64,000 nucleotides of DNA, taken from positions 765 through 64,764 of the forward strand of contig DATJRM010000024.1 of NCBI GenBank assembly GCA_035504755.1. The letters run 5' to 3'. The stretch is from Candidatus Acidiferrales bacterium (GTDB taxonomy: Bacteria; Vulcanimicrobiota; Vulcanimicrobiia; Vulcanimicrobiales; Vulcanimicrobiaceae). The notes beneath the pieces were generated by a model. It was not told where the DNA came from and made no database searches. It was given only the letters and a program-made list of their open reading frames with translations. A program made the translations under genes and the position numbers. Positions 4,938 to 64,000 of this stretch are shown piece after piece. Position 1 is the first letter of the stretch; the number at the start of each line of letters is the position of its first letter.

Positions 4938-5714
4938 ATGCGTCGAACTCGGTTCATCGTCGGTGTGGGTGCATTCGCCGCGGTAGCGGTGACGCTCACG
5001 CGCGCCGCATTGAGCGAGGCCGCCGAGCCGGTCGCACTCGGCGCCGGCGGCGCTCTTTACGAGTTCACGGTTCACGGAAACGGTGTCGATGCCGATTGCG
5101 TTGCGGCGGTTCTTCCTCAGAACGCCTTTGAAGCACGTATTCTTTCGAACCGGCTCAGACCCGGCGACATTGCGATCGTCACCGACCTTGCCGAGGAGAC
5201 GAATGCGATCGTCGGTATCAACGGCGGCTTTTTCAGCGACACGGGGTATCCGGACGGTCTGCTGATCCTCGACGGGAAGAGAATCGGCTACGCCCGCGAC
5301 GATTGGAAGGGCTTTTTCTCGATCGACGAGTCGGGTGCGGCCAGCATCGCAACGGCCGCCCTTCCGCAGGCGCGTTACGCGATGCAAGGCTTCCCGATGT
5401 TGATCGAACCCGGTGGCGTCATGGGCATACGCAAAGACGATCGCGTGCAAACGCGCCGCTCCATCATCGCGCAAAGCGGTTCTACGCTCGTAGCGATGGT
5501 CGCGTCGCAGATCTCGCTTTTCGAACTAGCTTCCATGCTGATGGATAATCCCGGCGCATTCGGGCTGCCGCATTTCGACACCGCGCTCAATCTCAGCGGC
5601 TCGGCAACGAGCGGCTTCTTTGCGCGAACGCCGAAGGGGCGAAAAGTGATCGTGCAGGCGCGGGCGTCCAGCCGCGACGTGATCGCTTTCTACAATAGAG
5701 CGACGGAGGAGTAA
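4938..5714 (+). CDS. secreted phosphodiester glycosidase family protein (DUF2233/NAGPA-like)
   Basis: It has a Tat-like/signal N-terminus MRRTRFIVGVGAFAAVAVTLTRAA. GINGGFF...DGLLILDGK...QGFPMLIEPGG...RRSIIAQ is typical of this family. Confidence 0.65.
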   Translation: MRRTRFIVGVGAFAAVAVTLTRAALSEAAEPVALGAGGALYEFTVHGNGVDADCVAAVLPQNAFEARILSNRLRPGDIAIVTDLAEETNAIVGINGGFFSDTGYPDGLLILDGKRIGYARDDWKGFFSIDESGAASIATAALPQARYAMQGFPMLIEPGGVMGIRKDDRVQTRRSIIAQSGSTLVAMVASQISLFELASMLMDNPGAFGLPHFDTALNLSGSATSGFFARTPKGRKVIVQARASSRDVIAFYNRATEE

Positions 5715-19968: not shown

Positions 19969-19992
19969 TTGGCTAGAACGCGTCTTCAAATT

Positions 19993-20020
19993 GTCATCCT
20001 GAGCCCCTGTCGAAGGACGC
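19993..20020. repeat. solitary copy of the GTCATCCTGAGC...TCGAAGGACGC repeat family
   Basis: gtcatcctgagcccctgtcgaaggacgc is the same unit (T/A variant with a 2-nt insertion) as the array at 63387..64000. It lies in the amt-rpsR intergenic region. Confidence 0.8.
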
Positions 20021-20052
20021 GTTTCAACCACCTAGTCGAAAGGACAACTTTA

Positions 20053-20298
20053 GTGGCCACCAAGACGAAGCGCGCGGTGAAAGATCGCCGCCCTAAGCGC
20101 AAATCGTGTAATTTTTGCGCCGACAAAGCGCTCGACATCAGTTATCGCGACGTCAACCGTCTCAAGAAGTACGTGTCGGAGCGCGGCAAAATCGTTCCGC
20201 GTCGTATCTCGGGCAATTGCGCCAAGCATCAGCGTTTGCTCACGACCGCGGTCAAGCGCGCGCGCATCATCGCGTTTCTTCCATTCGTTTCCGAATAA
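20053..20298 (+). CDS. rpsR: 30S ribosomal protein S18
   Basis: I trimmed the ORF to GTG 20053. The sequence is [71 protein letters not shown]. Confidence 0.95.
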
Positions 20299-62596: not shown

Positions 62597-63376
62597 ATGA
62601 GAAGCCAAACGGAAAAGGCGATGGCGTTTCGCGCATTGCACGAACGCAAGAGCGCCTTCATTATCCCAAACCCCTGGGACATCGGAAGCGCGAGGATCCT
62701 CGAGCGACTCGGCTTTGAAGCCTTGGCGACCACGAGTCTAGGTTTCGCGCTATCGATTGGGCGGAGTGACGGCGACGTGGATCGTGACGCAATGCTCGCT
62801 CACGTCGCGCAGCTTGCCGCCGCGACCGATCTGCCCGTGAGCGCGGATCTCGAGAACGGCTACGCCGATGAGCCCGGCGGCGTCGCCGAAACCGTGCGTC
62901 TCGCGGCCGCCGCGGGTCTTGCGGGATGCTCGATCGAGGATCTGCCGCTCGGGCGCCAAGGCGAGCCGTACGATCTCGAATTTGCGGCGAAGCGCGTGCG
63001 TGCGGCGGTCGACGCGGCGCGCTCGTTGCCGTTTCCGTTTACACTCACGGCGCGCGCCGAAAACCTCATCGCCGGCCGTCCCGACCTCGACGACACGATT
63101 GCACGCCTGCAGGCGTATCAGGACGCCGGGGCCGACGTGCTCTACGCGCCCGGGCTGCGCACCGAAGACGAGATCGCCGCGGTCGTACGCGCGGTCGATC
63201 GTCCGGTCAACGTGCTGGCAAGCACGCTCGGGACGGCATTGGACCTCGCCGCGCTCGAGCGGCTCGGCGTCAGACGCGTCAGCGTCGGCGGCGCACTCGC
63301 GCGCCTGGCCTACGATACGATGACGCAAACCGCCGCAGAGATGCGCGAAGGGGGCACGTTCAGTTTCGCGCGCTAG
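62597..63376 (+). CDS. isocitrate lyase / PEP mutase family protein (2-methylisocitrate lyase / carboxyvinyl-carboxyphosphonate phosphorylmutase-like)
   Basis: It reads FIIPNPWDIGSARILERLGFEALATTS...VSADLENGY...AGCSIED. Confidence 0.8.
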   Translation: MRSQTEKAMAFRALHERKSAFIIPNPWDIGSARILERLGFEALATTSLGFALSIGRSDGDVDRDAMLAHVAQLAAATDLPVSADLENGYADEPGGVAETVRLAAAAGLAGCSIEDLPLGRQGEPYDLEFAAKRVRAAVDAARSLPFPFTLTARAENLIAGRPDLDDTIARLQAYQDAGADVLYAPGLRTEDEIAAVVRAVDRPVNVLASTLGTALDLAALERLGVRRVSVGGALARLAYDTMTQTAAEMREGGTFSFAR

Positions 63377-63386
63377 CGCCGTAACG

Positions 63387-64000
63387 GTCACCCTGAGCCT
63401 AATGTGTCACCCTGAGCTTGTCGAAGGGCGCACGAATCTCCGCGACCGCATTCCCTTGTCACCTGAGCTTGCTGTGTTACCCTGAGCTTGTCGAAGGGCG
63501 CACGAATCTCCGCGATCGCATTCCCTTGTCACCTGAGCTTGCTGTGTCACCCTGAGCCTGTCGAAGGGCGCATGAATCTCGGCGACCGCGTTCCCTTGTC
63601 ACCCTGAGCTTGCTGTGTCACCCTGAGCTTGTCGAAGGGCGCATGAATCTCGGCGACCGCGTTCCCTTGTCACCCTGAGCCTGTCGAAGGGCGCACGAAT
63701 CTCCGCGATCGCGTTCCTTTGTCACCCTGAGCTTGTCGAAGGGCGCATGATCTCGTTGAACGCGCGTCCTTCGACAGGCTCAGGATGACACGTTAAGCTC
63801 AGGATGACACACTAAGCTCAGGATGACAGGTTTGCGTCCTTCGACAGGCTTAGGATGACACGTTAGGCTCAGGATGACAGGGTTGCGTCCTTCGACAGGC
63901 TCAGGATGACACACTAAGCTCAGGATGACACGTTCGCGTCCTTCGACAGGCTCAGGATGACACGTTAAGGTCAGGATGACAGGTTTGCGTCCTTCGACAG
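63387..64000. repeat. non-coding array of GTCAYCCTGAGC...TCGAAGGRCGC repeats in two opposed arms; continues past the window edge
   Basis: Forward long units start at 63406, 63476, 63546, 63617, 63669 and 63721, giving periods of 70, 70, 71, 52 and 52 nt. Inverted long units start at 63764, 63834, 63885, 63936 and 63987, giving periods of 70, 51, 51 and 51 nt. There is no ORF of 60 aa or more, and stop codons occur in all frames. Confidence 0.9.

Follow-up and report, generated by a model that had tools for sequence, protein, structure and literature searches.

This study examined a repeat block at positions 63387-64000 of the window, which is the whole 64,000-nucleotide (nt) stretch of contig DATJRM010000024.1 that was analyzed. 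The block lies past the last gene, extends over more than 600 nt, and is built in two arms from one family of units. We estimate a probability of roughly 0.7 that this array consists of a directional hairpin clustered densely in two arms, and that this hairpin is the cognate repeat of a clade of approximately 100-amino-acid (aa) GIY-YIG nucleases related to the Ssn proteins. This reading is carried by the motif, the covariation of its hairpin, its association with nuclease genes, the hypervariability of the arrays, and the spread of the unit among taxa, all of which were established here by sequence comparison.

Structure of the array

The array consists of full units and of half units that contain the 5' half only, in the following arrangement.

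63387..63746, + strand: left arm, forward units, sense to the gene on its left; stem variant C-G
63406-63431, 63476-63501, 63546-63571, 63617-63642, 63669-63694 and 63721-63746, + strand: six left-arm full units, TGTCACCCTGAGCYTGTCGAAGGGCGC
Starts at 63387, 63458, 63528 and 63598, + strand: four left-arm half units (5' half only)
63432..63720, cores from 63434, 63504, 63574, 63645 and 63697, + strand: five copies of a spacer of about 25 nt, YGAATCTCSGCGAYCGCRTTCCYTT
63747..63763, no strand assigned: 17-nt junction between the arms, ATGATCTCGTTGAACGC, near-identical in strain L139
63764..64000, - strand: right arm, inverted units; stem variant T-A
63764-63789, 63834-63859, 63885-63910 and 63936-63961, - strand: four right-arm full units, with a fifth (63987-64000) cut by the window end
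63797-63808, 63816-63827, 63867-63878, 63918-63929 and 63969-63980, - strand: five right-arm half units

The periods of the left arm are 70 and 52 nt, and Tandem Repeats Finder reported a 70-nt period in 4.2 copies (63387-63680), a 52-nt period in 2.7 copies (63616-63755), and a 51-nt period in 4.0 copies (63797-64000). Together with the unit positions, these data confirm the two-armed array of long and short units with a spacer of about 25 nt that had been described from the letters alone (hereafter the original prediction). Its statements that the array is non-coding and not CRISPR-like also held; the segments between the units are themselves repeated or absent, so that the identical repeats and unique, equal-length spacers of a CRISPR were not found. 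The innermost units form an inverted repeat with 27-nt arms (63720-63746 and 63764-63790) that stand 17 nt apart, and three mispairs were found in it where two had been reported. Nine matches of the full-unit pattern occur in the window, with 0 expected from shuffles, and the 12-mer at the head of the unit has 20 matches, with 0.44 expected.

Outside the window, the spacer was found in contigs of the same locus (L002, L003, and L139) and as a single match in L085. As it is private to the locus, it looks like ordinary flanking DNA that was swept into the duplication of a period. A blastn comparison of the array with plasmids gave no match, and a literature search for the unit sequence and for repeats of Eremiobacterota returned nothing relevant.

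The unit as a directional hairpin

The unit can be written as TGTCA-YCCT-[GAGCYYGTCGA]-AGGR, a directional element with a 4-bp stem. The original prediction had noticed that each arm carries its own variant, which is correct, and had missed that the two differing positions are pairing partners in the hairpin stem (CAYCCT / AGGRCG), forming a C-G pair in the left arm and a T-A pair in the right arm, that is, a compensatory change. Over the loci, this Y5/R23 pair was T-A in 243 copies, C-G in 240, T.G in 45, and C.A in 8, and it was Watson-Crick in 321 of 372 distinct flank pairs, compared with 178 expected, in a selection blind to the pair.

For a survey of the whole stem, copies were picked by the GTCA flank and the loop alone, leaving the stem free. 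Nine fully paired 4-bp stems were recovered (CCCT/AGGG, TCCT/AGGA, TCCC/GGGA, TGGT/ACCA, TGCT/AGCA, CACT/AGTG, GCCT/AGGC, GGTT/AACC, and GTCT/AGAC), and all four stem pairs changed on both sides among about 200 distinct copies. The compensatory cells numbered 40, where shuffles gave 15.0 +/- 3.4 (0/500); the covariation score was 0.380 against 0.161, with the true register beating every slid register. These data demonstrate the covariation of the unit hairpin. Among distinct copies, T.G wobbles outnumbered C.A by 35 to 3, which fits the folding of the forward strand only.

At unit positions 4/24, just outside the 4-bp stem, an A stands opposite a C in 288 of the 372 distinct copies and an A-T pair occurs in 61; a C-G pair then follows. 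A conserved pairing irregularity of this kind is typical of DNA hairpins that are recognised by proteins.

Other resemblances of the unit were dropped. The reverse strand of the T-A variant contains CAGGAUG, as might a CsrA sponge; the equally common C-G variant is without GGA, and this idea was rejected because the base pair is conserved and not GGA. Resemblances to a hammerhead ribozyme, tRNA arms, the 16S 5' end, Shine-Dalgarno/anti-Shine-Dalgarno sequences, and DnaA boxes, judged by eye, were partial or coincidental.

Association with small GIY-YIG nucleases

A tandem-unit scan over one genome per species yielded at least 115 array-bearing loci (L022-L136), and an all-vs-all BLASTP comparison was performed over their genes. 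The clustering produced one family of eight small proteins from two phyla that match the Pfam GIY-YIG domain (PF01541, E = 1e-13 to 1e-18); the proteins of this clade are about 100 aa long and single-domain. A forward unit lies 0-70 nt upstream in seven of the eight genes, and in six of these seven a second, inverted unit coincides with or follows the stop codon; in the seventh (L026), the unit was seen upstream and none downstream. The nuclease C-termini, ...RPSTSSG*, are translated from the reverse strand of the unit, which also supplies the TGA. A hidden Markov model (HMM) of the eight proteins found 11 gene copies (12 open reading frame (ORF) matches) among the loci listed, all of them array-bearing.

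The family was further followed by a protein homology search of 5.8 billion proteins, using the core domain only, after the tails encoded by the repeat had been cut off. This yielded at least 7,842 clusters at 90% identity, and tails encoded by the reverse strand of the unit (e.g., PSTSSG* and LRQAQGD) occurred in 32 of the best 120 of these at least 7,842 matches. Many of the matches lie on contigs of 0.5-1 kb, as expected for nuclease genes that are boxed in by repeats. Six family genes were then sampled by protein homology, chosen only for lying on long contigs, and units adjoined all six: four are flanked on both sides, and L290 and L293 have units only downstream. In L287, four forward units precede the nuclease gene and three inverted units follow it. 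A homologue on a Sphingomonas plasmid (50% identity) has the same layout and the same loop with different stems. These data demonstrate the association of the nuclease with the unit.

A Tyr, a Tyr, an Arg, a His, and a Glu are invariant in the nuclease, and these are presumably the catalytic residues, as judged from the GIY-YIG fold.

Some of the nuclease loci deserve separate mention. In Methylobacterium bullatum (L162, 560-1130), a homologous GIY-YIG gene is flanked by a long-form relative of the motif, CCTCATCCTGAGG-[inner hairpin]-CCTCGAAGGAGG, which suggests that the GAGC...TCGA loop is replaceable by a second stem. The GIY-YIG gene beside the array of L120 (about 5260-5600) is split over two frames and may be a pseudogene. 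L026 holds two intact GIY-YIG copies, at 5027 and 7321, which are 2.3 kb apart.

Distribution and genomic context of the unit

The unit was found in Eremiobacterota, Bacteroidota, Acidobacteriota, Chloroflexi, and Alphaproteobacteria. Among the at least 115 loci listed, about 93 come from Candidatus Eremiobacterota/Vulcanimicrobiota, and the remainder from Bacteroidota, Acidobacteriota, Chloroflexi, and others. The GC content of the host genomes ranges from 32 to 72%, and the 5' TGTCA and the loop GAGC-N3-4-TCGA are constant throughout.

The orientation of the units relative to genes was evaluated with a crude gene caller of our own, based on ORFs and third-position GC (GC3), and the resulting figures are therefore approximate. 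Among the loci listed, 143 units lie beside gene 3' ends and 81 beside 5' ends, and 41 convergent intergenic regions contain units compared with 11 divergent ones. At the 3' ends there is a mild orientation bias, with 89 units sense and 54 antisense; arrays between tandem genes were sense in 17 cases and antisense in 13. L032, L062, and L088 also have balanced two-armed arrays that separate convergent genes and whose arms are both sense. Overall, head-to-tail direct runs dominate, and the orientation mostly switches at most once per array.

Two side observations concern the hosts. In a Bacteroidetes/Chlorobi metagenome-assembled genome (MAG) with a GC content of 37%, nineteen units of 24-26 nt stand head-to-tail with zero spacer (L114, 2539-2998), and occasional 25- and 26-nt units disrupt any reading frame. 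As for the window, its S18 protein (20053-20298) shares a 90%-identity cluster with Eremiobacterota proteins, and the source MAG is named Candidatus Acidoferrales (Acidobacteriota). As genomes with such arrays are nearly all from Eremiobacterota, the Acidobacteriota label of the source MAG looks doubtful.

The locus in other strains and the growth of the array

Two further features of the window enter the comparison among strains.

62597..63376, + strand: left flanking gene, phosphoenolpyruvate (PEP) mutase / isocitrate lyase family (Pfam PF13714, E = 5.9e-77)
19992..20021, + strand: solo unit, TGTCATCCTGAGCCCCTGTCGAAGGACGCG, about 30 nt upstream of the rpsR start (20053)

The stop codon of the PEP-mutase gene is separated from the first unit by 10 nt. 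The locus was recovered in four independent metagenome assemblies (L001, L002, L003, and L139). The first three of these come from different samples, encode an identical flanking PEP-mutase protein, and all stop inside the left arm with differing unit counts, in agreement with the original prediction that the array breaks assemblies. The contig of the related strain L139, found via the right-arm pattern, spans the junction and the whole right arm. There, the right arm measures about 240 nt and runs up to the stop codon of a convergent His_Phos_1 (histidine-phosphatase) gene. The array therefore occupies all of the DNA between two convergent genes, with either arm running sense to the gene that it adjoins. 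A metagenome scan specific for the junction gave no match.

The number and order of the units vary among the window, L001, L003, and L139. The Eremiobacterota loci include long-read contigs of megabase scale and two complete chromosomes with arrays of the same family. Given this and the recovery of the locus in independent assemblies, the array is not an assembly artefact.

The family had been described from the array alone, and the solo unit near rpsR, whose copy of the motif was placed at 19993-20019, extends it to a second site in the window. When strains L140 and L141 were compared at this site, L140 was seen to have two extra half units of 15/16 nt, inserted at an internal TGTC. This motif occurs twice per unit, as TGTC-ATCCTGAGCCCC-TGTC-GAAGG. 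Slippage between the two TGTC copies, a microhomology within each unit, thus multiplies the units where they stand, and it accounts for the short units being 5' halves in every case. Whole periods, including spacers, also duplicate, which results in arrays that vary among strains. The expansion in L140 is direct evidence of growth in place, and it took place within the leader of a gene for a ribosomal protein.

Interpretation and alternative explanations

The proposed function leans on a system recently described by Chenal et al. (Nat Commun 2025; PMC11893778), whose main text introduces Ssn as single-domain GIY-YIG proteins of about 94 aa (cd10448). According to that text, SsnA cuts single-stranded DNA (ssDNA) only, on the forward strand only, upstream of a hairpin repeat, and Ssn binds a directional hairpin repeat with a conserved upstream flank (CGTCAT...), which is called NTS in Neisseria (CGTCATTCCCGCGMAVGCGGGAATCYRG) and SRM as a general class (PMC11893778).

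By analogy with SsnA and NTS, the forward strand of the unit would fold when the DNA is single-stranded, and the nuclease would bind the hairpin and its TGTCA flank and nick upstream. The activity of the nuclease, or the repair that follows it, might then seed units at new intergenic sites. The nuclease gene with forward units upstream and inverted units over or after its stop codon would constitute a cassette resembling an insertion sequence with terminal inverted repeats. Slippage and the duplication of whole periods would have enlarged the array of the window in place, the space between two convergent genes being a "safe" site. As its arms share polarity with the units that bracket nuclease genes, it may be a gene-less counterpart or derivative of the [forward units]-nuclease-[inverted units] cassette.

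Several results weigh against this interpretation. Binding, cleavage, action at the ssDNA level, mobility, and any host benefit are steps that we infer. The HMM of the nuclease family found no GIY-YIG gene in the 64-kb window. No target-site duplication, empty/filled site pair, or insertion polymorphism at a new site was seen among the strains compared, where the changes consisted of in-place expansion. The published SRM pattern, HGTCWYN(0-2)YYVSBRHN(0-5)WNVSBRGN(0-2)RNCYNB in the main text of PMC11893778, matches none of the array units; it does match NTS test sequences and has three scattered matches in the whole window. The clade shares 30-42% identity (38-56 bits) with NTS-flanked Ssn-type proteins, and UPF0213 proteins score about as well, so that an Ssn-like biochemistry of the clade would be an extrapolation. 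Relatives of the nuclease on phage contigs are without such flanking hairpins, which is uninformative. The fold of a single-unit hairpin is no better than that of shuffles and is thermodynamically unremarkable. Finally, there is a hint of a replication-strand bias: forward units lean to the locally C-rich strand (per locus, p = 0.02 for the total skew and p = 0.005 for the third-position skew, loci L022-L136). The local GC skew changes sign every few kb in the window, and this lean is treated as weak evidence because the skew is noisy and sign-flipping.

The position of the array between convergent genes invites an explanation at the RNA level, in which the units would be hairpins of 3' untranslated regions that end or stabilise convergent transcripts, and the inverted arms would act as an extended barrier in both directions. 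The start of the array 10 nt past one stop codon and its end, in L139, at the other, the sense orientation of each arm here and in the three balanced arrays mentioned above, and the 89 sense against 54 antisense units at 3' ends all agree with such a role, as do the tolerance of T.G wobbles on the forward strand and a fold of the whole array at -380 kcal/mol (z = -22), its arms being inverted. We nevertheless consider this explanation unlikely. A permissive Rfam scan (E <= 10) of 63000-64000 returned only spurious, below-threshold matches of microRNA precursors to the arm junction, and since no terminator-like site (a stem plus a T-run) was found within the array, an intrinsic terminator was rejected. 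The nearly even split of arrays between tandem genes (17 sense, 13 antisense), the single-unit fold that does not exceed shuffles, and the report that SsnA does not bind RNA (main text of PMC11893778) point the same way, and the bracketing of nuclease genes would be left unexplained. The structured RNA that the original prediction had offered among its possibilities thus gained no support from Rfam, and the unit orientation relative to genes is weakly biased. A secondary effect of the array on RNA or recombination may exist. An Rfam match to "skipping-rope" at 63007-63095 (- strand), inside the PEP-mutase coding sequence, reached 16.7 bits against a gathering threshold of 36.7 (E = 0.82) and is almost certainly due to chance.

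A neutral minisatellite, amplified locally with no trans-acting partner and kept by slippage and recombination, would account for the shifts of copy number and order between close strains, for the locus-private spacer that was co-amplified with the units, and, through the TGTC microhomology, for the half units. Slippage explains the growth of the array and not the origin or conservation of the unit, however, and the same 26-nt unit recurs in several phyla, in genomes whose GC content runs from 32 to 72%, with its flank and loop unchanged, its stem covarying, and a tight link to a single gene family; we therefore regard a purely neutral repeat as very improbable. We likewise attach scarcely any credence to a classical REP/BIME cluster, in which the hairpins would be substrates of RAYT (IS200/IS605-like) enzymes and would have spread as REPINs. 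Short extragenic hairpin repeats with a conserved 5' tetranucleotide, enriched at gene 3' ends (143 vs 81) and in convergent regions (41 vs 11), are what such a cluster would present, and tandem REP arrays have a precedent in Pseudomonas fluorescens SBW25 (PMC3116915). The gene bracketed by the units is, however, a GIY-YIG nuclease, and a phmmer search of 7,728 ORFs, taken from the window and about 0.9 Mb of array-bearing loci, gave no homologue when E. coli RayT was the query (best E = 0.023). Moreover, the flank is GTCA and not GTAG, direct tandem arrays dominate over inverted doublets, and a near-identical unit in at least five phyla is unlike the lineage-specific REPs. The REP/MITE-like element of the original prediction stands as an intergenic, REP/MITE-like repeat family of soil bacteria, with a small GIY-YIG nuclease found in place of the RAYT/IS200-like partner that had been expected.

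Returning to the reading of the array as a cluster of the nuclease's cognate hairpin, a more far-reaching version is possible, which we put forward tentatively and hold to be less likely than not to be true. The units and nucleases would then be a separate sister system to Ssn that had gone unrecognised, outside cd10448 and the SRM definition, and would form a selfish cassette that spreads horizontally across soil phyla, with the nuclease nicking forward-strand ssDNA hairpins and thereby driving its own homing into hairpin sites and the seeding of gene-less, two-armed, MITE-like arrays, the present one included. If this were so, the origin of a repeat that ranks among the commonest assembly-breaking "junk" of soil metagenomes would be identified, and PSTSSG, LRQAQGD, HPELVEG, and VILSLSKD in hypothetical proteins would be translations of the unit.

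Implications

With a partner enzyme named, a testable mechanism becomes available for a very widespread small repeat, one that breaks up soil-metagenome assemblies and gives rise to spurious ORFs. Annotators could mask or flag the motif and could recognise, in nuclease genes, the C-terminal tails that the repeat encodes. The Ssn/SRM concept would be extended to a second large nuclease clade (at least 7,842 clusters at 90% identity) and to uncultured phyla such as Eremiobacterota, with a hairpin type that the published pattern misses. In addition, each nuclease/hairpin pair is a candidate tool for the sequence-specific cutting of ssDNA.

Comparison with known systems

The unit resembles REP, REPIN, and BIME elements as extragenic hairpin repeats with a conserved 5' flank that form clusters and tandem arrays near gene 3' ends, with a partner enzyme gene flanked by inverted repeats and an ssDNA hairpin as the presumed substrate (PMC3116915). 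It differs from them in its partner, a GIY-YIG nuclease instead of an HUH/Y1 transposase, in its 5' flank (GTCA here, GTAG in REP), and in its basic arrangement, which is not that of inverted doublets (REPINs) or alternating orientation. As regards MITEs, the arms of the array have the same orientation as the units that flank GIY-YIG genes; neither a target-site duplication nor an empty/filled pair was found in our comparison of strains.

The cyanobacterial SDR repeats of Elhai et al. 2008 are said to be 21-27 nt long, dispersed, hairpin-capable, and intergenic, with heterogeneous tandem arrangements and without a known transposase. Our unit is likewise very small, dispersed, and hairpin-capable, with tandem arrangements and no known transposase. 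We know of no association of SDRs with a nuclease.

On the protein side, the closest solved structures to the nuclease are the UPF0213 proteins BH0048 (PDB 1ZG2, E = 3.6e-18) and EF2693 (PDB 1YWL, E = 4.8e-16), and this family, which includes YazA/YhbQ, has the same size and a single domain. The UPF0213 genes of Firmicutes adjoin tRNA/rRNA methyltransferase genes. To our knowledge, UPF0213 proteins have no association with repeats, and their function is uncharacterised.

The closest known counterpart is the Ssn/SRM system. The original prediction knew of no functional description for such motifs; hairpin repeats of the SRM class and their small GIY-YIG ssDNA nucleases were published in 2025 (PMC11893778), with a pattern that does not match the unit. 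The main text of that paper describes an NTS-ssnA-NTS or, more generally, SRM-ssn-SRM layout, which its authors liken to insertion sequences and to RAYT/REP, and treats NTS as a subset of dRS3 in Neisseria, where the system modulates natural transformation; its roles elsewhere are unknown (PMC11893778). Compared with this account, the repeat here is likewise a directional hairpin of about 26-30 nt whose stem is preceded immediately, on the 5' side, by a conserved GTCA(Y) flank, and the HGTCWY... flank of the published pattern is present here as a TGTCA that is invariant 5' of the covarying 4-bp stem. In both, the repeats are mostly intergenic, clustered, and present in up to hundreds of copies, and a single-domain GIY-YIG gene of about 95-110 aa lies between forward (upstream) and inverted (downstream) repeats, here in related genomes. 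The forward-strand-only signature of the unit also fits the strand-specific ssDNA cleavage by SsnA. At the protein level, the NTS-flanked Ssn-type genes L217 and L242, both on viral contigs, encode full-length homologues of the clade (hhalign probability 99.3%, E = 1e-20).

The two systems differ in the hairpin, since the unit has a 4-bp stem with a conserved loop of 11-12 nt and NTS has a stem of 6-7 bp. The clade probably falls outside the homologue definition in the main text of PMC11893778 (tblastn with N. meningitidis SsnA, E < 1e-10), and neither head-to-tail arrays with half units nor Eremiobacterota and Bacteroidota hosts were found in that main text. SsnA is known biochemically, whereas the clade described here is known from sequence. 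What this study adds to a kind of system known since 2025 is a different hairpin, a diverged clade of nucleases, hosts from new phyla, and tandem arrays of unusual regularity.

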